From: a virus
Direction: 5' to 3' (one strand)
Length of the DNA stretch: 64,000 bases
Virus record (IMG/VR): IMGVR_UViG_3300032249_001164
Span: 1 to 64,000 of that record
The translations under genes and the position numbers were made by a program. The notes beneath the pieces are model-generated. The model made no database searches. It worked only from the letters and a program-made list of their open reading frames with translations, and had not been told where the DNA came from. Shown in pieces: positions 7,998 to 63,216 of this stretch (the stretch's first letter is position 1; each line of letters opens with the position of its first letter).

Positions 7998-8996
7998 GTG
8001 GCTGCAAGCAGTACAGCACCAATGAGTCTTGATGATTACCTGAAAGACATCGCTCGCGTTCCCCTGTTAACAGGGGACGAAGAAATAGTGCTTGGGAATA
8101 GGGTGCAAGATATGATAAAAATCTTGAGGGAAAACGGTTTAAGTGAAAGCATCTCGCTAAATAATTTTGTTAGTTTCACGAAAGACTTGCGGCCAGAGCA
8201 AAGACGGGTGGTGGAAAAAGGGTTAAAAGCAAGGGATCGCATGATCTCAGCAAACATGAGACTCGTGGCTGCAGTCGCCAATAAGGCAAGATCGATGTGT
8301 GCTCACTTGTCAATCGAAGATTTGATGCAAGAAGGTGCCATTGGTCTTGCTAGAGCTGTTGAAAAGTTTGAACCACAGAAAGGGTATAAGTTTAGTACAT
8401 ACGCCTATTGGTGGATAAGACAGGGAATTACGAGAGCCTGGGAAAACCAGGAAAACACCATAAGAATTCCAGGTAATATTCAAAAAGCAGCCAGATTGAT
8501 TGAGAAAACCAGGGTAAGTCTATCAAAAACACTTAACAGGGAGCCGACTATTCCACAAATTGCCGAAGAGATGGGCGAAAAACCGGAACGAATTAAAAGA
8601 ATTATTTTACAAAGGGTGAAAGTGTTTTCCTTTGATCGTGATTCTTGCGGGCTTAGTCATGATGTTTTTCCTGGGAGGGACACTTTCATGGATTTCCTTA
8701 AGTACAACTGCTTTGCCACCCTTGCTCAAGAGGAAGAATCTGAAAGTATTAAAGAGATCCGTCGCATAGAAAATATTGCAATGACTATTGTCAATGCACT
8801 TCCAGAGCAAGATCAGCGGCTAATCAGACAAAGGTATGGAATAGGTGAACGCCAGCTAACAATCAAAGAGATAGCGGAGAAAAGTGGGGTAAGCCAACGA
8901 CGCATTAAAGATAAGTGCAACGAAGTTATGAGTGGAGTCGTGTTTACAGCCAAGGTATTTGCGCCTGAGGCTTTTGCCAAGGCTAAGCTTTCGTAG
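7998..8996 (+). CDS. phage-encoded RNA polymerase sigma-70 family factor (RpoD/RpoS-like)
   Basis: YLKDIARVPLLT, ANMRLVAAVA, DLMQEGAIGLARAVEKFEPQKGYKFSTYAYWWIRQGITR. Confidence 0.95.
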   Translation: MAASSTAPMSLDDYLKDIARVPLLTGDEEIVLGNRVQDMIKILRENGLSESISLNNFVSFTKDLRPEQRRVVEKGLKARDRMISANMRLVAAVANKARSMCAHLSIEDLMQEGAIGLARAVEKFEPQKGYKFSTYAYWWIRQGITRAWENQENTIRIPGNIQKAARLIEKTRVSLSKTLNREPTIPQIAEEMGEKPERIKRIILQRVKVFSFDRDSCGLSHDVFPGRDTFMDFLKYNCFATLAQEEESESIKEIRRIENIAMTIVNALPEQDQRLIRQRYGIGERQLTIKEIAEKSGVSQRRIKDKCNEVMSGVVFTAKVFAPEAFAKAKLS

Positions 8997-42760: not shown

Positions 42761-42955
42761 TCAGTTGTTGCGCACGGGTCCCGCTGACAGGGTTTGCTTC
42801 ATTACCCAACCTGTAGCAGCTTTTTACATTATCCACGCTTGGAGTAACTGCTTAGCAATGGCTCTCAGTGTTGCTACGTCGCCCGTAGTATCGATGGCTC
42901 TCGAAAATCTTTCAATCTCAAATTCTTGGGAAGCAGTGAGCGCAAGTGGCTCCAT
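42761..42955 (-). pseudogene. nblA: NblA-like phycobilisome degradation protein with in-frame TAA at codon 44
   Basis: MEPLALTASQEFEIERFSRAIDTTGDVATLRAIAKQLLQAWIM*KAATGWVMKQTL...; resembles picocyanobacterial NblA on both sides of the stop. Confidence 0.7.
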
Positions 42956-48910: not shown

Positions 48911-50557
48911 TCAAGCCCTCGCCAGCGTTACGCTCTCGATCTGACCCTGGTACTTACCTGACCGATCCTCGTAGCTAGTGCCGCATGGCTCACCACTGAA
49001 GAACAGAGCCTGTACGATTCCTTCGTTGGCATAAATTCGTACATCGGCATCGCTACTATTGCTGAACTCCAGTGTTAAATGGCCATGCCACGAGTTACCT
49101 GTCCATGAAACCCTGCCTCGATGGCGCATTAAGAAAACGTGTGACGGCACCGTTAAGTCGTACACAAAGCCAGAGTACGGAATTTCTTCACAGTTTTCGG
49201 GTGAAATCCTTGACGGACTCGGATTGCGAGAGGAAAAGCGACAAACGTGGCTGGCAAATGTTTTTCCGTTAATGGTGCTTTCTTTTGCCCAGCATGTGGC
49301 GTAGTCTCCAATCTTGAGGCATATCTCCTGAAAGTCGTCAACCAACTGCTTGCTAACGCTGACATAGGTAGAGGTTTGGATATTTCCGTCAGAATGCATC
49401 ATGCCCTCGCGGATCAAGGCGAGTTGATCAGCTGGAAGATTGATATACTCCCTGGGAATGCGCTTATTGCGAGCGCCCCTGAATTGCATTAAGTAAAGGC
49501 AAGTTGCCTTGTGGTGAAATGCAAAACCGTACCCTGTCTCACTAAAGTTGACACCAAGAGATTGCAGGACTTCCTTGAAATAGGCTCGTTTGCGCTCTTT
49601 CGTGACAACAGCGAGCTTGATGACGTAGTTGCCGCCTGATTGCACATAGGTCGAGCCATCCCCCAGCCAGCACCCCAAGAATCTGAGCCATGCATTTGTC
49701 GGATATTCGCGCTCACCAATGGTCACAGTATTGCCAATCCTGGAGCCAAGCCAGTCAACATCCCGAGACAGGTAGAGATTGTGCTTGCCAAATACTGTCT
49801 GAGCCTCAACACGCTCAAACGGGTAGGCCATTGACGCCTTGCGACGGACGCCTGCAACTCGTCCAGGTGCATAGCCCGCCTCGGCCTCAATCCGCCGCTT
49901 GGAGATCGCTGCCCACATCATGTGGCCCGGAGTTACAACCTGCGAAACCACTTTGCTCTGAAATGAGAGCATTTTGCCATTAAAGTGATAGCGGTGGAAA
50001 TCTTGCACCGGCTGGTAGACGGCTTTCGTGTTATCCAGACACATAACCTCCTCGCCAGTGAGAACTTCTGAAATTAACTTCCATCCAGTTCTGCAGAGGA
50101 CTTCGGTATCTTCAGAGAGACACGCTTCACCCGGAGTTAGATTAGCAATTACCCCGCACCTAGCGTATGTACTTTTTCCAATGAAGAGAGCTGTAATATT
50201 AGGTGGTATTCTTAGGTGTTCTAGCGCTACGCCTAACCCGTAACTATGGTGCGGCAAGACGAAAAACTTTCCCCACCTGTCTTCCTGGAGTTCTACTGGC
50301 TGCAGGTTGATTTCACTGAATGCTTTTGGGTTGACCACCGTACCAGGTACGTGCCTGAAAACCAAAAACTCTTTTGGAGATAAGCGCAAGTCATAGCCGT
50401 AGCTACTGGCGCCGTAGCTAATGGCGGGTATCACAAGCTGACTGGCACCGTCTAGCGTTTCGCCGTGCTCAATACGACGAATCAGTTTAGGCACGAAGGG
50501 CGTAATCATGCCCTTTTCTGCCAGTAGCTTAATGGCTGTGTCGTTAAGGATGGTCAC
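48911..50557 (-). CDS. dcd: dCTP deaminase containing an intein
   Basis: ISYGASSYGYDLRL, GKSTYARCG, TPGEA|intein|SWHGHLTLEFSN, YANEGIVQ, GKYQGQ. Confidence 0.93.
   Translation of the reverse strand: MTILNDTAIKLLAEKGMITPFVPKLIRRIEHGETLDGASQLVIPAISYGASSYGYDLRLSPKEFLVFRHVPGTVVNPKAFSEINLQPVELQEDRWGKFFVLPHHSYGLGVALEHLRIPPNITALFIGKSTYARCGVIANLTPGEACLSEDTEVLCRTGWKLISEVLTGEEVMCLDNTKAVYQPVQDFHRYHFNGKMLSFQSKVVSQVVTPGHMMWAAISKRRIEAEAGYAPGRVAGVRRKASMAYPFERVEAQTVFGKHNLYLSRDVDWLGSRIGNTVTIGEREYPTNAWLRFLGCWLGDGSTYVQSGGNYVIKLAVVTKERKRAYFKEVLQSLGVNFSETGYGFAFHHKATCLYLMQFRGARNKRIPREYINLPADQLALIREGMMHSDGNIQTSTYVSVSKQLVDDFQEICLKIGDYATCWAKESTINGKTFASHVCRFSSRNPSPSRISPENCEEIPYSGFVYDLTVPSHVFLMRHRGRVSWTGNSWHGHLTLEFSNSSDADVRIYANEGIVQALFFSGEPCGTSYEDRSGKYQGQIESVTLARA
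49094..50122 (-). mobile_element. intein (343 aa) with LAGLIDADG homing endonuclease
   Basis: Starts CLSEDTEV, block B VTPGH, FLGCWLGDGS and GMMHSDG, block F VYDLTV, ends WTGN before Ser+1. Confidence 0.92.
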
Positions 50558-54099: not shown

Positions 54100-54540
54100 G
54101 GCATGGTTTGCTAGGTGGATACAGCTTCGCCCTTGTGGCCGTTGCTGCCCTCAAATTATAGGCGGTGAACCTGTTAGGTGGCAAGCCCTGGCAGCTTTTA
54201 AGGTCTGGCGGTTCGCAAACCGTAACATTAGCCGGCTTCCAGCCTTTGCTTTTTCGCAATTTTGCTTGTGCTGCCAACGTGCTACCTGTCACCAGCTGCG
54301 GCCAGAATCGACCAAAAATGGCAAACTACAAACAATCGGAGCCGTGCTCCAATTAACCTAAATCTCTTAAAGTCTTCAGTTCAGTAGCAACGGCGAGCCG
54401 CCAAACTATCACTACGCCAAACCACAATTCAATCAGCCAACGTGCAACGTATAAAGTATAGCCGAGCGGGATAGTGAACATAACAATTATCGCGTACTTT
54501 GTAGCGCAAACCCTATGTAAATACAGTTTGATGTAGGACC

Positions 54541-55977: not shown

Positions 55978-56772
55978 TTAGTCACTATCAGCTTCTTCCA
56001 GGGCAATTAGCAAATTATCGACACCAAGGGCACTACTTTGAAGGCTCTTACCAACATCAGCAAGCTTGGCTGCAACATTTAACATACCAGGTAAATCTCT
56101 TGTATCTAGCGGTTTATCGTCATCTAACATTTTGGACAGTGTAGAATTCGCCAGTAATGCAATACGTGCAGCATTCAGGGTTAATTGCTGACCTAAAGCC
56201 TCTTGTTCTTGGCGATATTTCTCTAATTTACGAATATGAAGGTCATGTTTAGCATCTTGAGACTGTTTCATCTTCTTTACAAGCTCTGCCCTGTCGTAAT
56301 CCTCGGTTCTACGCTTCCAACTGTTCTTTGCACTTACTTTACTTAGTGCCGAGGGTGTAACGTTGGATACCACTGAGATATATTGAAGGGAACGCCCCCC
56401 ACCGTACATACAATAAAGTTTGAACAGCTCGAATTCCTTGTCAGTTTCGTTAGTAGCGAGGTAGCTTCTCTTATCCCAAGAGTTGCTAGAAGAGGTGGTG
56501 GTAGTTAGGGTGTGATGTACCGCGAGTAAATCTTTAGTAGTTGGGGGTGCATCGTCAGGGTCAACCTCGATAGATTCATCATCCATCAGGGCTTCCTCAA
56601 GTGCGTCCTTAAATGTTTCACCTTCACCTTCCTTAACATCATCCTCAATCTCTCCGTATTCATTGAGATTTCCTGTAAATTCTTCAACTTCACCTTCGTC
56701 GGTGAATCCCTGTAGATCATTCCTTAAGGTATCAGCAGCTTCATTCAGGTGCTCAAAATCTTGGGGGTTCAC
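55978..56772 (-). CDS. probable terminase small subunit with acidic N-terminus
   Basis: ETDKEFELFKLY...GRSL...NSWKRR..YD HTH followed by helical oligomerisation region. Confidence 0.55.
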   Translation of the reverse strand: MNPQDFEHLNEAADTLRNDLQGFTDEGEVEEFTGNLNEYGEIEDDVKEGEGETFKDALEEALMDDESIEVDPDDAPPTTKDLLAVHHTLTTTTSSSNSWDKRSYLATNETDKEFELFKLYCMYGGGRSLQYISVVSNVTPSALSKVSAKNSWKRRTEDYDRAELVKKMKQSQDAKHDLHIRKLEKYRQEQEALGQQLTLNAARIALLANSTLSKMLDDDKPLDTRDLPGMLNVAAKLADVGKSLQSSALGVDNLLIALEEADSD

Positions 56773-56843
56773 GTTGGGTAATCAGCTTCCAGGATTCTAA
56801 CAACAATCATCAGCGGTAGTGTCGGGGTTTACGTTGGGGCTGG

Positions 56844-57056
56844 TTAATCAGCTTTTATCAACTTAACATCCTCTAAGCCGTAAGCCACTACCATGTCAGG
56901 ATTCCGAAGGTAGGAACGTGTAGCCCGGAAGACATTTTCTGCACCCTTGAGAGTCTTAAAGTATTCATGGCTCCAGCGGCCCCTGGACTTTGTTGCAACA
57001 CAGAAGGTTGCATCCTTCTCGACTTGCCTTCCTGATGGAAGCGTGAAACTAGCCAT
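56844..57056 (-). CDS. small early protein
   Basis: Clean ORF after hairpin element. Confidence 0.6.
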   Translation of the reverse strand: MASFTLPSGRQVEKDATFCVATKSRGRWSHEYFKTLKGAENVFRATRSYLRNPDMVVAYGLEDVKLIKAD

Positions 57057-57090
57057 AGCAAAAACAAAACAAGGTAACTAAGGTTTACAG

Positions 57091-57118
57091 TGCAGGTTTC
57101 CGGTACTCCTACAAACTT
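57091..57118 (-). promoter_or_regulatory. conserved hairpin element, copy A
   Basis: AAGTTT-GTAGG-AGTACCGGAAA-CCTGC. Confidence 0.7.
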
Positions 57119-57130
57119 ACTCATCAAAGT

Positions 57131-57367
57131 TTAAGCAATATCCCTAAGATGCCGAAACTGATGGTTAAAGACCATTTTTTGATCCAAGTCGTAGATCGTC
57201 AACGGGCCGAATTCGGCCACGAAAGACTGAGGTGTGGAAAAAGTCTGGCGATTACAATTTCCCACTTGCTGGCATCCGAATCGAAGGTATTTCGCAAACC
57301 TTCGAGTTTTTTTCTTGTTACGTGAAATTGCAATATCGAAATTACTGACAGCAAAGTAAATTGTCAT
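57131..57367 (-). CDS. small early protein
   Basis: First gene after promoter cassette 1. Confidence 0.55.
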   Translation of the reverse strand: MTIYFAVSNFDIAISRNKKKTRRFAKYLRFGCQQVGNCNRQTFSTPQSFVAEFGPLTIYDLDQKMVFNHQFRHLRDIA

Positions 57368-57389
57368 AGCCTGTAATGTGTAAAGTGTG

Positions 57390-57495
57390 GAGCCGGACAA
57401 GCTGTAACTTCCCCGGCTGATCTAATAATACCCCAGCGGCGCCATTTTGTCAAGCCAGGATGCCTGCAAAGTTAGCGGACTGTAACAATAATTTC
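57390..57495 (-). promoter_or_regulatory. early promoter cassette 1
   Basis: TTATTGTTAC-N5-GCTAACTTTGCAGG, then TTGACA-17-TATTAT, then GCCGGGGAAGTTACAG hairpin. Confidence 0.85.
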
Positions 57496-57627
57496 CAGGG
57501 CTACCCGTGAGGTTAAGGGCCGTTTGCCTGTAAAACCAGGCCCGCCCCATCGCTTAACCTGTAGATTTAGCGATCACAACATGTGAGGTTGCGGGATAGT
57601 GAATATACAAGCTTTAGCCCTTAGCCT

Positions 57628-58047
57628 TCAACCCATGACCCGTGGGCTGTTATCGACAGCAACAAAATCCCTTGTCGCAACTGGTACGCCAGCAGCATCG
57701 TAATCTGGATGCCGGTCTCCATCTGCGTCTACGATCCAACAATCAACCATGTGACATCTACCGGAACAAACTGGCACCATATACCTGAAAGTCGGCTTGC
57801 TTTTGTTAAAAATCCAGCCCTGGATCTCGTACATTAAATGTTTACTGACAAATGGTGGCAAGCCTTGCTCCAGAATCCAATCAAGGCTTTGCCCCTTCTC
57901 TAATGCAAAACTGGCGCGATAACTGTTTGAACTACTACAAAAGTCTTCAATCTTTACGCCAGACAAATCAACAAGATACGCACTGCTGATTCCAAAGTAA
58001 AGACTGTCAGTGTTGACAACTGTGAGGCTTGGGGATGTGAGATCCAT
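57628..58047 (-). CDS. early hypothetical protein
   Basis: 139 aa ORF in early cluster. Confidence 0.6.
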   Translation of the reverse strand: MDLTSPSLTVVNTDSLYFGISSAYLVDLSGVKIEDFCSSSNSYRASFALEKGQSLDWILEQGLPPFVSKHLMYEIQGWIFNKSKPTFRYMVPVCSGRCHMVDCWIVDADGDRHPDYDAAGVPVATRDFVAVDNSPRVMG

Positions 58048-58166
58048 AATACAAAAAAGCGAAAGCGATGGTAGAATTGTAAATCCTGTAGACGACTTTT
58101 ACTGCTCAACCTCTTTAGCTGAACCTGCATACTCCCGGCACAACTCAATCAACTTTCTGCCTGAGA

Positions 58167-58532
58167 TCATGCAATCTTCATTGATCGAAAAGTGATGCAC
58201 TCAGGCATCATGAATATCTCGCCACCTGCGAGCTGATCCCACCGCGCTGGGTACATAGCCTCCAGCATGTCCTGCCAGCGCTCCTTCGTGACCCTGGAAG
58301 GGCCCGTGCAGTACCTTTGACGTGCAAGGTCCTGGCTTAACCTTTGAGCCTCCTCCCAGGGGCACAGGAAGGCATCTGGCGAAACCAATCCCCGTGACTT
58401 CAGTTCGTCCAATGTCTGCTTTCCGAACATGCAGACAGGAACGTTAGGGTCGGGACCTGGAACCATGAAACTGTAAATGCCGGTGCTGTACTTTGACTTT
58501 GGATCAAAACAACATACTTCAGAGGTTGTCAT
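58167..58532 (-). CDS. DUF1419-like early protein, possibly frameshifted at 3' end
   Basis: VTKERWQDMLEAMYPARW...FMMPE. Confidence 0.5.
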   Translation of the reverse strand: MTTSEVCCFDPKSKYSTGIYSFMVPGPDPNVPVCMFGKQTLDELKSRGLVSPDAFLCPWEEAQRLSQDLARQRYCTGPSRVTKERWQDMLEAMYPARWDQLAGGEIFMMPECITFRSMKIA

Positions 58533-58906
58533 TGCGGAAACAGAATGTGTGGGGTAATTTCAAAGGTTGCACCTGGAAACTGATCGGCATAAACGCCTGA
58601 CCTACAAGTAGCATCCTCATAAGTCACCCGAGAAGCAAGAAGCTTCCAGTTACCTTCGTCATCCAAAACCGAGAGATTATACTCCTCGTAACTAACGTCT
58701 AAATCCTTCATGAATTTGGGGCACATGTCAGTAAATAGCTTTTGGTTTTGGGGTCTTACTCTTCCAGTGTGGCTTGGAAGAGCTAACTATCATGTAGCAA
58801 GCTCCAATACCAGGAAGCCAACCTGTAACCAACCTTTTACCAGCAGGAAGGCGATCTTCCAGGCTCCTGAGATCAACCTTTCCTGCTGGCTTCCAGTTTT
58901 GCTGCT

Positions 58907-59239
58907 TCATCGGTTTAAGCTCCCAATCGCAAATGGAACATTCCCTGGATTAACCCCTGCTCTAAGCGGCCTAATTCTTTCGACTAGAGCCTTGATTCTG
59001 TCAATTCGACGCCAGTAACGTTCAGCTCCGAACTTGCGGTAAAACTCTTCATGCCTGTAATCATGACGCTGTGCGCTCCAAAGCCATAAAAAACAATAAT
59101 GACCGTACACCTTGTCAGATATACGGTCCCATTGCTTTAAGCTCTCCATTTGGGCTAGAGAGTGATCCAAGAAATAGGAAAGTTCAGTGGAAACTGGAAA
59201 GAGTTGTCTCCAGCGTTCAGCGATAGCCATAACAAGCAA
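58907..59239 (-). CDS. early hypothetical protein
   Basis: Coupled to downstream small ORFs 58728-58910 and 58529-58726. Confidence 0.55.
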   Translation of the reverse strand: MLVMAIAERWRQLFPVSTELSYFLDHSLAQMESLKQWDRISDKVYGHYCFLWLWSAQRHDYRHEEFYRKFGAERYWRRIDRIKALVERIRPLRAGVNPGNVPFAIGSLNR

Positions 59240-59257
59240 GCGAGTGGATGGTTGAAG

Positions 59258-59812
59258 CTAGGCGAGTTCACCTAGTTCAGTAAACAGGTAATCATTAGCC
59301 TTGATGGTTTCGACTACCTGCTCTCGGCTGGTTTGGTACTCGTATTCATCACGCAAAATTAGCAAATAATCTTCAAGCAGCTCCTTAGCAAAGTCGGCTT
59401 CAATCTCTTCGGCTTCGTCTTCACGCTTGAAATCTGCAAGCCAGTCTTTAGGCTTCCAGTGACTGGCAGAAGGGTCAGCCTGCTGGGTTTGAGTTCCGTA
59501 CCATTCTACAAAGGCTGCAATGTATTGCTTATGGTATGCAATGGCAGTTTGGAAAGTGCGCCATTCCTTGCCGTGATTTTTTCGTATTGACTTGCAAACA
59601 TCAAGCAGGTATTCGTTAAGCTTTCCCTCGATTGTTCTGCGTTCAATGTCGAACTCTACAATCTTTAGCCCAATAAGCTCGGCGTTCTCGTACGTTGAAT
59701 CCCGCCAATCATAATGTACGTTGACATCATGCAAGTTGGAGATTGCTGCCTCTTGAGCTTCTTTACTAAGCTCATCGAACCTGTAAAGCGTGATTAGCTT
59801 GATGACTGGCAT
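59258..59812 (-). CDS. acidic early protein
   Basis: LYRFDELSKEAQEAA...EYEYQTS.E...ETIKANDYLFT..G, a recurrent phage/plasmid early family. Confidence 0.7.
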   Translation of the reverse strand: MPVIKLITLYRFDELSKEAQEAAISNLHDVNVHYDWRDSTYENAELIGLKIVEFDIERRTIEGKLNEYLLDVCKSIRKNHGKEWRTFQTAIAYHKQYIAAFVEWYGTQTQQADPSASHWKPKDWLADFKREDEAEEIEADFAKELLEDYLLILRDEYEYQTSREQVVETIKANDYLFTELGELA

Positions 59813-59849
59813 GGCTGTAAATAACAAGGTGTGAGGGTGCGATAAAAGC

Positions 59850-60368
59850 TCAATTATACAAACGAAAGTCTTTGAACGGGAGAATACGGCTCTTTATTTC
59901 GTCAACCTGCTTAGCTAGTCTGTCAATTTCGTTCATATCGTCTAATACGGCTTCAGGCTCGTAACCTGTCTGCAAGATGCCATCGCCCATTTCATCGCCC
60001 AGGATACCGTTACTGATGGCCGCAACATATATATAGCCCTTCATGTACGACGTTCTGCCCTGAAACTGATAGCATTTATCAATCTCAAGATTTAGCCAGT
60101 AGGAGTTTACAAGAAAGTGGAACCTAAAACCTTCATTGTAAGACCCTGAGTCTTTATCAAAAAACAAGTCACAATCCCTAAGTGCTTGATCTACAACTGC
60201 AGCACACTTTTTTGTAAGTGAGCCGCTCGCAAGCTGCACTTTTTTGCCCTTGAACCCCTCAAGCGCAAGCTTAAGCTTGGCTCTCGCTTCGTTAAGCTTT
60301 GCGTGAACAGCGTTGCGTGTTGCAACCTCTAACCTTAGCTTGTCAAGATAGGCTTGCGAAGTTTTCAT
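59850..60368 (-). CDS. early hypothetical protein
   Basis: 172 aa ORF. Confidence 0.65.
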   Translation of the reverse strand: MKTSQAYLDKLRLEVATRNAVHAKLNEARAKLKLALEGFKGKKVQLASGSLTKKCAAVVDQALRDCDLFFDKDSGSYNEGFRFHFLVNSYWLNLEIDKCYQFQGRTSYMKGYIYVAAISNGILGDEMGDGILQTGYEPEAVLDDMNEIDRLAKQVDEIKSRILPFKDFRLYN

Positions 60369-60407
60369 GACAGTGTGATGATGATTTTAACAAATTAGAG
60401 ATAAAAC

Positions 60408-60767
60408 TCAAGTATTGATCGTGCCATCCGCACGAATGCACATCAACATCCCTTGCATGGTGCCTGTAATGCTGCCCTCAGGAATGTAGAAAGTTTCGCC
60501 GCCAACCTTTAAAGCCTTTTGTTCGTAGTAAAAACTATCAATTACCTCTGGTAGGGTTTTACCCTTGAGACTGTCGTAGGACAGTATCCGAACTGCAATC
60601 TTTGCCCACTGAGCGTCAGTAACAAAAAATGGATTAACTCTTAAATACCAGTGACCGGGTTTCATGTCACGTCCAACGTAAGAGCTAAAGTTGCTGCATT
60701 TTACGAGTAACTCGTAGGTTGTAGGATCCTGCCGCTTAAGTGCTGTGAAATCGCTGTAAATAGCCAT
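60408..60767 (-). CDS. early hypothetical protein
   Basis: Likely start MAIYSDF after hairpin copy B. Confidence 0.6.
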   Translation of the reverse strand: MAIYSDFTALKRQDPTTYELLVKCSNFSSYVGRDMKPGHWYLRVNPFFVTDAQWAKIAVRILSYDSLKGKTLPEVIDSFYYEQKALKVGGETFYIPEGSITGTMQGMLMCIRADGTINT

Positions 60768-60807
60768 CGCTGAAATGAGTAAAGAATGAGTAAGATTGGT
60801 TTGGAGG

Positions 60808-60834
60808 GCGGATTTCCGGCACTTCCGCAAACTT
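60808..60834 (-). promoter_or_regulatory. conserved hairpin element, copy B
   Basis: AAGTTT-GCGGA-AGTGCCGGAAA-TCCGC. Confidence 0.7.
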
Positions 60835-61155
60835 ACGGGACGCAATCAGGTCCAACCAGTGTTTAAGCTGTAAGATTCGTAGCCAGATCGGCTAGACACC
60901 CACTTCCAGTAGTCAAGCTCCGATGTCCGACCATCGAGTAGGCAAGCCTTATGCACTGAGCGTGCAAAAGTTGGGTGGCCATCTTCGCAACCGCCCCACG
61001 TAGCCTCAAGTTCATCAGCAGACAGAGTGCAAGACATCACACATCCCTGTGACAAACTTCGGCTGCAATGAAACGAAGCGCAACGTAGCTATCACAGGTA
61101 GAACCCGCGATTTGCCCTTTAGTAGTCATAGCAATAAAGCGCAAAGTGTAAGGTC

Positions 61156-61182
61156 GCGAGTTTCCGGTACTCTCGTAAACTT
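61156..61182 (-). promoter_or_regulatory. conserved hairpin element, copy C
   Basis: AAGTTT-ACGAG-AGTACCGGAAA-CTCGC. Confidence 0.7.
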
Positions 61183-61234
61183 CAAGGTTGAATCAGAGCA
61201 TTGAAAACCTCCCGCAAGATGTAAACTGTGAAGT

Positions 61235-61345
61235 TGGTTGGGGCTTGGCCTGCAAGCTCCCCGACCTGACACCATAATAACCGATTGGCTTGCGGATGTC
61301 AAGCGCAAAACCCTGTAAAGTTAGCACACCGTAACAATAAAATTG
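61235..61345 (-). promoter_or_regulatory. early promoter cassette 2
   Basis: TTATTGTTAC-N5-GCTAACTTTACAGG, TTGACA-17-TATTAT, GTCGGGGAGCTTGCAG hairpin. Confidence 0.85.
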
Positions 61346-61409
61346 CCCCGATTTTGCCTCCAAATCTGTCTCGATTGCCTGCAAAGTTGCGGGATAGTGA
61401 ACCTGTAGC

Positions 61410-61667
61410 CTACAGCCTTGAACTTACTGGCGCTCCCTGCCAAACCTCAATATCTCCGCTCCAGGAGCTAACAGCAGCAATTGCAACAGTCATGCCAATT
61501 TTTATGTCAAACAGTAACTTGCGATCATCCGTCGTGCAACGATAGATAAATTCGTCGCGAACAGAAGTTGCGGCCCTGTTGCGAGCAATGGAGAACGTGA
61601 GACCCGTCTTATTGTCGTAACATGTAACTTTTTCGATGGAGCGCAGCCACCTGGGAGTCTTATCCAT
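61410..61667 (-). CDS. early hypothetical protein
   Basis: Overlap-coupled to upstream gene. Confidence 0.55.
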   Translation of the reverse strand: MDKTPRWLRSIEKVTCYDNKTGLTFSIARNRAATSVRDEFIYRCTTDDRKLLFDIKIGMTVAIAAVSSWSGDIEVWQGAPVSSRL

Positions 61668-62196
61668 TGCAGCTGACCCCCCAGCCTTGGTGCCAGGTTT
61701 TTGACTCTTTAATCTGATTAAGCATCGTGTCGCACAGCAACTTTGCTTTTTCAGGTGTTAACATACGAGGCTCATTTCCAGTAAAACTTGATGCTCCCCA
61801 ACAACGCACAGCATCCATGTACGCAAGAGCACGTACTACTGGCGACTCAGCAAGAAACTCCATCAACAAGCCTTCGTAAGTCGCATCACAGATTTTACTC
61901 TGCTGGAGCAATTTTACAGGATTGCCGAACCAAGCTTCATGGTCAGGGTGGAAATTGTTGTCAGACAAACCATCAAGGCCGTTCTCATGTTTAATCCTGG
62001 TGACTCGATCCAGTAGGATCGTCTCTATCTGGTGCTGGCATTCGCCCACACTACCTGAAAGGTGCTCCAGAATCAATAACTCAGGAGTGTAAATCCCTGT
62101 CCTATCAACCAGGACAAAACCACCTCCATGTTCAAATGGATCGCCCTGATCTTTAATGTTTGCAACGCACCAGTAGCTTGGCTGATCTGTCGTCAT
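61660..62196 (-). CDS. early hypothetical protein
   Basis: ANI..GDPFEHGG.FV..D.TG.Y.PE motif. Confidence 0.65.
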   Translation of the reverse strand: MTTDQPSYWCVANIKDQGDPFEHGGGFVLVDRTGIYTPELLILEHLSGSVGECQHQIETILLDRVTRIKHENGLDGLSDNNFHPDHEAWFGNPVKLLQQSKICDATYEGLLMEFLAESPVVRALAYMDAVRCWGASSFTGNEPRMLTPEKAKLLCDTMLNQIKESKTWHQGWGVSCNG

Positions 62197-63057: not shown

Positions 63058-63162
63058 TGTGCCGAGGCTGTAATTTCCCCGACCCATCTACTATACCACG
63101 GCGACCCGCTTTTAGCAAGCCCAGAACCCTGTAAAGTTAGCAAAATGTAACAATAAAATTCT
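63058..63162 (-). promoter_or_regulatory. early promoter cassette 3
   Basis: TTATTGTTAC-N5-GCTAACTTTACAGG, TTGCTA-17-TATAGT (extended -10), GTCGGGGAAATTACAG hairpin. Confidence 0.85.
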
Positions 63163-63216
63163 CGATTTTCGCAAGGTTAAGGACGCCGAGCCTGCAGATT
63201 CCAGCCGCCTCAACCC

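Follow-up and report, generated by a model that had tools for sequence, protein, structure and literature searches.

What is the short hairpin that recurs, with changing stems around one nearly constant loop, among the early genes of an uncultured phage? The question is raised by the virus record IMGVR_UViG_3300032249_001164 (79,539 bp, with 123-bp terminal repeats), of which bases 1-64000 form the window analysed here, and in which an original prediction, made from the letters alone, had placed three copies of the hairpin at 57091-57118, 60808-60834 and 61156-61182. All three were confirmed in position and sequence on the minus strand, which is the coding strand of every flanking gene. Judged by comparison of related sequences, the hairpin is a genuine cis-regulatory RNA motif, not described before, in a clade of phages that is known from metagenomes alone. 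Its best explanation is a cis-acting hairpin on early polycistronic mRNAs that would be made by host RNA polymerase from consensus sigma-70 promoters, where it would head the untranslated leader of the next cistron, and its function is tentatively read, with a probability of roughly 0.35, as a protein-recognised processing and stability signal. The three copies are as follows.

57089-57123, minus strand: copy c1; 5' flank and AAGTTT 57123-57113 (AAGTTT itself 57118-57113); stem GTAGG/CCTGC with one U.G, 57112-57108 / 57096-57092; loop AGTACCGGAAA, 57107-57097; stop TAA 57133-57131 upstream, ATG 57056 downstream; covariance-model score 44.5 bits
60805-60839, minus strand: copy c2; AAGTTT 60834-60829; stem GCGGA/TCCGC, 60828-60824 / 60812-60808; loop AGTGCCGGAAA, 60823-60813; stop TGA 60848-60846 upstream, ATG 60767 downstream; covariance-model score 44.2 bits
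61153-61187, minus strand: copy c3; AAGTTT 61182-61177; stem ACGAG/CTCGC with A.C at its base, 61176-61172 / 61160-61156; loop AGTACCGGAAA, 61171-61161; in the leader of promoter 61302-61274, upstream of ATG 61129; covariance-model score 49 bits

In the entire genome the loop 11-mer is found at these three sites and nowhere else, and the 22-nucleotide (nt) pattern gave three matches with zero mismatches, against a shuffle mean of 0.65 even with three mismatches allowed.

Covariation and distribution of the hairpin

Relatives were collected by pattern scans of viral and metagenome contigs, after which a covariance model, the check proposed alongside the original prediction, was built and run over entire related records, where it recovered further covarying homologues. 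The scans gave at least 120 loci, and at least 21 distinct copies were gathered from 11 related contigs, of which 7 are viral records and 4 come from metagenomes; most genomes have two or three, with three each in G000, G001, G003 and G007 and two each in G004 and G006. Rows of the resulting 21-row alignment were chosen within the related contigs by loop and flank pattern only. Stem cells are paired in 96% of cases, against 21–43% in partner-slid controls; five of the six pairs change on both sides, and the observed covariation score was reached by none of 500 shuffles. Different stems were also observed at orthologous sites, as set by homologous flanking proteins, such as c2 versus G004_a and G007_a; c1 versus G001_c and G003_b; and c3 versus G002. 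The prediction that the stems differ yet still pair holds in full for c1 and c2, whereas c3 forms only four of five standard pairs; the wider claim of a selected single-stranded structure is borne out by the strong covariation over 21 distinct copies, which always lie on the transcribed strand and downstream of sigma-70 promoters.

The consensus runs from WAGUUU through the 5' strand of a stem of 5 base pairs (bp) and the loop AGUNCYNGAAA to the pairing 3' strand. Across the 21 copies, G8, U9, U10 and U11 on the 5' side are invariant and A7 is present in 19; the loop is 11 nt long in every copy and reads A-G-U-.-C-.-.-G-A-A-A, with variable positions 4 (A in 14, G in 4 and U in 3 copies), 6 and 7. 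The 5' hexamer described earlier as fixed is AAGTTT in all three copies of this genome, but relatives carry AAGTTT, TAGTTT, ATGTTT or TTGTTT, so that GTTT alone is invariant; likewise, the loop given as AGTRCCGGAAA is near-invariant within the genome and widens to AGTNCYNGAAA across relatives. RNAalifold, given 95 nt of context, predicted this helix alone, extended by U10-A34 and U11-A33; in most copies the stem is lengthened by one or two U-A pairs, giving a consensus helix of 5–7 bp.

In whole related records the copies scored 33.8–52.4 bits with the covariance model, and the other matches comprised one at 21.2 bits (L029:4311-4354) and a next best of at most 14.4. As the only other match above 15 bits is itself paired, unpaired copies with the conserved loop are absent from the related records. 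The match at L029:4311-4354 (minus) reads TTGAAGTTT-GCAAG-(19-nt loop AGCACCTTTCTGGGTAATA)-GCTTGC, a paired long-loop variant, possibly a copy that has diverged and now has another loop. For the 123 pattern matches in metagenomes, stem mismatches were distributed bimodally, with 11 at zero mismatches and the bulk at three or four. Matches in enterobacterial prophages (the L004 group) were taken as chance: they fall among the tail genes of HK639-like phages, where a second copy is unpaired. When 185,579 species genomes were scanned with the pattern, nine matches appeared, none in a family context, and the covariance model gave zero matches in 151 sampled cyanobacterial genomes, a weak test in which few candidates were scored. 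The view that the element belongs to no known family was sustained: Rfam 15 gave zero matches at the gathering threshold across the whole window and, at E<=10 in 56500-62000, four weak matches of which none overlaps the hairpin, while a literature search with the loop sequence returned unrelated primers and ETS sites only.

Transcription and gene neighbourhood

The promoters, genes and open reading frames (ORFs) around the three copies are the following (aa, amino acids).

61274-61302, minus strand: consensus sigma-70 early promoter TTGACA-17-TATTAT, driving the transcript with c3 and c2
57425-57453, minus strand: consensus sigma-70 early promoter TTGACA-17-TATTAT, driving the transcript with c1
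61193-61201, minus strand: mini-ORF ATG CTC TGA, with GGGAGG before it, ending 11 nt before the AGTTT of c3
61040-61129, minus strand: 30-aa ORF that follows c3 and overlaps the 63-aa gene at TGATG
60849-61037, minus strand: 63-aa early gene upstream of c2
60411-60767, minus strand: 119-aa gene downstream of c2
57134-57367, minus strand: first gene of the c1 operon, 78 aa, with a basic RNKKKTRRFAK stretch
56847-57056, minus strand: 70-aa gene downstream of c1, with a start lacking a Shine-Dalgarno sequence and a C/U/A-rich leader (AAACCTTAG...GCTATG)

Copy c3 lies about 85 nt past the start site of promoter 61302-61274, with c2 350 nt further in that operon, and c1 lies about 300 nt past the start site of promoter 57453-57425, behind the operon's first gene. 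Relatives keep this arrangement, with promoters 121, 482 and 835 nt upstream of hairpins, and all copies are found on the gene strand; where a TTGACA-17-TATTAT promoter can be detected, it lies 120–1530 nt upstream of the copy. Being downstream of sigma-70 promoters on the gene strand, the hairpins would be transcribed leader or intercistronic sequence rather than promoters; the element itself contains no -10 or -35 hexamers and no U-tract. The earlier description of intergenic elements some 30–40 nt before an ATG fits c1 (35 nt) and c2 (40 nt), which are intercistronic, but not c3, which sits in a 5' leader behind a two-codon mini-ORF and 26 nt from its ATG. An upstream stop codon precedes AGUUU by 6–14 nt and the stem begins at least 11 nt past that stop, which would leave it just clear of the terminating ribosome's footprint. 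The next start codon follows 23–41 nt after the stem, behind a C/U/A-rich leader (e.g. ACCTTACAC...GCTATG) without Shine-Dalgarno sequence. In the primary-transcript leaders P1 and P4, 5'-terminal hairpins were likewise found 23 nt before the same kind of leader motif.

Four repeated early promoter cassettes were observed on the minus strand (57425-57500, 61274-61350, 63090-63170 and, in genome coordinates, 66615-66700), each made up of a conserved box TTATTGTTACNNTNNGCTAACTTT, a -35/-10 pair (TTGACA-17-TATTAT in two of them) and a G-rich 5' leader hairpin (GTCGGGGA...). The conserved-loop hairpin itself is present in just two of these four operons. An identical 16-mer, TTCACTATCCCGCAAC, stands at 57588-57603 and 61386-61401 (minus), about 100 nt upstream of two of the cassettes, and a partial third copy stands at 54463-54478. 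A strong terminator-like hairpin, GACCGTA...TACGGTC with a T-rich tail, was noted at 59101-59128 (minus), about 1.7 kb downstream of c2 and inside the called ORF 58907-59230.

Orthologues of the 78-aa first gene in G001 and G003, and of the 63-aa gene in G004 and G007, likewise directly precede a hairpin copy, in the latter case each with a different stem. The 78-aa protein belongs to no Pfam or PHROG family, a homologous-protein search found none, and its AlphaFold model (predicted local distance difference test score 88) gave no PDB fold match; a locus search for relatives of the 63-aa neighbour also found none. In L029 the orthologous hairpin is followed by a 119-aa protein, and the 30-aa ORF is similar to the C-terminal part of that protein; the ORF is apparently a truncated gene that has kept its hairpin, leader and ATG. 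The mini-ORF ATG CTC TGA also occurs, with a GGAGG Shine-Dalgarno sequence, at L029:5321-5329, and in L056 (~8150) ATG TAG stands before what is left of the usual first gene, its final 17 nt. The c3 mini-ORF is probably a scar from deletion of the operon's first gene, and the mini-ORFs in the three phages look like deletion scars that spare the hairpin.

Pfam and PHROG scans, which covered all ORFs above 345 aa and most above 100 aa, exposed a long-tailed phage gene set, including portal, large terminase subunit (TerL), tail fibre and a 2387-aa tape measure with an M23 peptidase domain; replication and nucleotide genes, including DnaB, Rad52, a primase zinc ribbon, a RuvC-like resolvase and a dCTP-deaminase-like fusion; and a sigma-70-family factor at 8022-8996 (plus) with regions 1.2, 2, 3 and 4 (Pfam E=2e-17 for region 2). 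In the set covered, the scans turned up no phage RNA polymerase, and about 40 early-region ORFs showed no informative family. The fusion is a 532-aa protein at 48911-50509 (minus), with a dCTP-deaminase-like domain and a weak thymidylate-synthase-like stretch, which hints at modified pyrimidines in the phage DNA. The nearest cultured terminases are those of cyanobacterial siphoviruses (TerL 38% identity), and an NblA-like ORF (LTASQEFEIERFSRAI...LLQAWIM*KAAT) with one in-frame TAA was judged by eye at 42761-42955 (minus); a Pfam search of its 43-aa N-terminal piece gave no match. Because of the TerL similarity and the NblA-like ORF, a cyanobacterial host is likely.

Function of the hairpin and competing explanations

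A series of known identities was tried and rejected. An RNase III site would need about 20 bp or more of double-stranded RNA, where the consensus helix offers 5–7 bp; an intrinsic terminator is contradicted by a 3' flank that is AAC or ACC-rich without a T-run, and the terminator scan does not call the hairpin sites; a lambda-type boxB has a 5-bp stem with a GNRA-like pentaloop, while here the loop is 11 nt in all 21 copies; and an N4-type hairpin promoter combines a 5–7 bp stem and a 3-nt loop with a virion RNA polymerase, while here the loop is far longer, the polymerase was undetected in the scanned ORFs and sigma-70 promoters serve the region. In its action the element would come closest to nut boxB or to the intercistronic processing sites of phages, but the features that define boxB, RNase III sites, terminators and N4 promoters are lacking. 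A coding explanation (frame K-F-x-x-V-P-E, with the variable loop base on the Val wobble) fails on 11 copies that read TAGTTT, a stop in that frame, and on the frame relative to the flanking genes, which differs between c2 and c3. A kissing-loop contact at the palindrome CCGG is contradicted by relatives with CCCG, CCTG, CTGG and CCAG; an H-type pseudoknot GUUU/AAAC would need zero-length linkers and is excluded on geometry; a selenocysteine insertion sequence (SECIS)-like or read-through role after TGA was rejected as TGA is the commonest stop of the phage (55–59%) and the frames are not open across c1; and reinitiation dependent on the mini-ORF was rejected as that ORF is present in c3 and L029 only, G007_c having ATG TAG and a scar-like remnant of the upstream gene. 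The commonest loop (57097-57106 and 61161-61170, minus; also L259 and L260) shares the 9-nt GTACCGGAA with the 5' strand and GGAA loop of cyanobacterial 16S helix 45. As a mimic of helix 45 the element was rejected, the 3' strand of that helix being missing; since the variants CCCGAAA, CCTGAAA, CTGGAAA and CCAGAAA, and G or T at position 4, break the match, the identity is probably coincidental. Three cyanobacterial 16S genes were searched and contained no complement of the loop or of the leader motif.

The functions offered with the original prediction, namely antitermination, translational control and an RNase signal, are all kept here as live hypotheses. Under the processing and stability reading, an endonuclease would cut the single-stranded AGUUU, the best candidate being host RNase E and the alternative a phage nuclease that reads the loop. 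After the cut, the downstream cistron would begin with the hairpin behind only 1–3 unpaired bases, as a 5' cap, and the processed end would mimic the primary transcripts, in which a 5' hairpin stands about 23 nt ahead of the same C/U/A-rich leader lacking a Shine-Dalgarno sequence. The recognising protein would make its contacts with the fixed loop, which may fold as a small bulged-G-like module. RNase E of Synechocystis cleaves single-stranded RNA where A stands at -3 and U at +2 (PMC8682795), and the enzyme is central in cyanophage infection (PMC3113571, PMC9692554). The segment A7-G8-U9|U10-U11, directly 5' of the stem, fits this A(-3)/U(+2) signature, a fit that concerns sequence compatibility only. 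Copies within one operon stand 290–700 nt apart, a spacing that suits the punctuation of cistrons.

Early mRNAs of some phages are cut at intercistronic sites, such as the RNase III sites R0.3–R1.3 of T7 and the RegB sites of T4, and a 5' hairpin stabilises the ompA message. Shared with these systems are a repeated structured signal between early cistrons of a polycistronic transcript of the host polymerase and the structured 5' end that it would leave on each cistron; in contrast, the stem here (6–7 bp) is far too short for the T7 sites, the GGAG of RegB sites is absent from the hairpin, and the conserved 11-nt loop has no counterpart in any of them. The bulged-G (sarcin-ricin or loop E) module is a common protein-recognition surface, and the original prediction had heard an echo of it in the loop, at a spacing too short for a true mimic. 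That remark stands as far as AGUN and GAA are present, with the 5' AGUA and 3' GAA(A) signature bases together in the loop of 14 of the 21 copies; the resemblance is partial, the two strands being only 3 nt (C-Y-N) apart, with no second flanking helix and with A, G or U at position 4.

Several observations weigh against processing and stability. No nuclease, RNase or RNA-binding protein was recognisable among the phage proteins scanned, and the likely host assignment rests only on the 38% TerL similarity and the NblA-like ORF judged by eye. The RNase E signature is low in information and leaves the invariant G8 and the eight invariant loop bases unexplained; because the loop is conserved, an additional reader would be required. 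The leader copies c3, L029 and G007_c already stand behind a 5' hairpin, where processing would be redundant unless these copies are deletion scars. The hairpin is thermodynamically marginal, as the single-sequence minimum-energy fold recovers it in only two of six contexts with z-scores near 0; the structural support is evolutionary, not energetic.

The main rival is a nut-like processive antitermination site, possible at rather long odds, in which a phage factor would bind the boxB-like hairpin and a boxA-like flank would recruit NusB/S10, making the polymerase resistant to pausing and termination. With lambda nut (boxA and boxB) the element shares a small 5-bp hairpin, a sequence-specific loop whose sequence matters more than that of the stem, few copies per genome and a promoter-proximal position in early operons, c3 in the leader and c1 after the first small gene recalling nutL and nutR. 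The 5' flank of c3, CAACCTTGAAGT, is identical at 9 of 12 positions to the cyanobacterial boxA GAACCTTGAAAA, which was confirmed in two cyanobacterial internal transcribed spacer regions and is described in the literature (bioRxiv 10.1101/2021.01.08.426015). A 9/12 match is nonetheless found in only 3 of the 21 copies, the mean upstream match being 6.8 versus 6.2 in control windows, so that the likeness is weak, inconsistent and lacking in most copies, and the downstream flank shows no enrichment. The loop differs from a GNRA-like pentaloop, and tandem copies 290–420 nt apart in one operon would be redundant for antitermination. Although the terminator-like hairpin with its T-run at 59128-59101 lies downstream, clear intrinsic terminators after the hairpins were not found (8 terminator-like sites versus 10.2 expected from shuffles), and no N-like or Q-like protein was recognisable, the 78-aa first-gene protein having a basic stretch but an unmatched fold. 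Equally possible, and equally doubtful, is a translational operator, at which a phage or host protein would bind the loop and repress or activate the nearby start that lacks a Shine-Dalgarno sequence, so that a subset of early genes is shut off or boosted in the manner of T4 RegA, gp32 or coat-protein operators. The narrow 23–41 nt to the start codon, with an unstructured C/U/A-rich leader between, the regulon-like provision of one copy per regulated cistron, and the combination of conserved loop and free stem, typical of protein-hairpin recognition, all suit it; yet the hairpin is clear of the start codon and ribosome-binding region, direct occlusion is unlikely because the spacing varies by 18 nt, the downstream genes are mutually unrelated, and no candidate RNA-binding protein was found.

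Roles at the DNA level, or as a recombination cassette, are improbable and less likely than antitermination or a translational operator. They would have the extruded hairpin serve as a promoter (N4-like, or one used by the sigma factor that the phage encodes) or as a priming or nicking site, or would have a repeated cassette shuffle early genes like the PeSLs of T4. The A.C mismatches on the sense strand (c3, G003_c and G007_c) would become G.T wobbles if the opposite strand were the one that folds, but U.G pairs occur on the sense strand too (c1, G004_a and L217), and the wobbles leave the choice of strand unsettled. The phage does encode a sigma-70-family factor, while no -10 or -35 hexamers were found in the element, N4 promoters have 3-nt loops and a phage RNA polymerase went undetected in the scans. 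PeSL cassettes of T4-type phages (PMC2839356, PMC4122927) are likewise short repeated stem-loop motifs among small uncharacterised early genes whose neighbours are deleted or replaced, and here the scars that adjoin the element (ATG CTC TGA, ATG TAG and the truncated 30-aa ORF) and the greater likeness among copies within G003 and within G004 than between genomes resemble such shuffling. PeSLs, however, are composites of promoter and terminator with conserved stems, whereas the present hairpin stands apart from the promoter, lacks a U-tract and combines compensatory stems with a fixed loop; recombination alone would not keep compensatory stem changes plus an invariant loop, and the element always takes the orientation of transcription and an intercistronic position.

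Implications for early gene control in cyanophages

To our knowledge, almost nothing is known of post-transcriptional control in cyanophages with long non-contractile tails, whose early genes are without recognisable function. At very long odds, the element may belong to a new phage RNA-protein control system in which a dedicated and so far unrecognisable early protein, or a host ribosome-associated factor, would read the structured and possibly bulged-G-like loop of 11 nt; the loop would be a mimic or decoy for a helix 45 factor and would steer the translation or stability of early messages lacking a Shine-Dalgarno sequence. A covarying RNA element that punctuates early operons across the clade offers a concrete handle on post-transcriptional control, and it would be the first signal of this sort to be described in this group of cyanophages, regardless of whether it works by processing, antitermination or translational control. 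The element is a candidate for a new Rfam family, and it is useful as a marker of early operons and of the deletion and shuffling events that reshape them.

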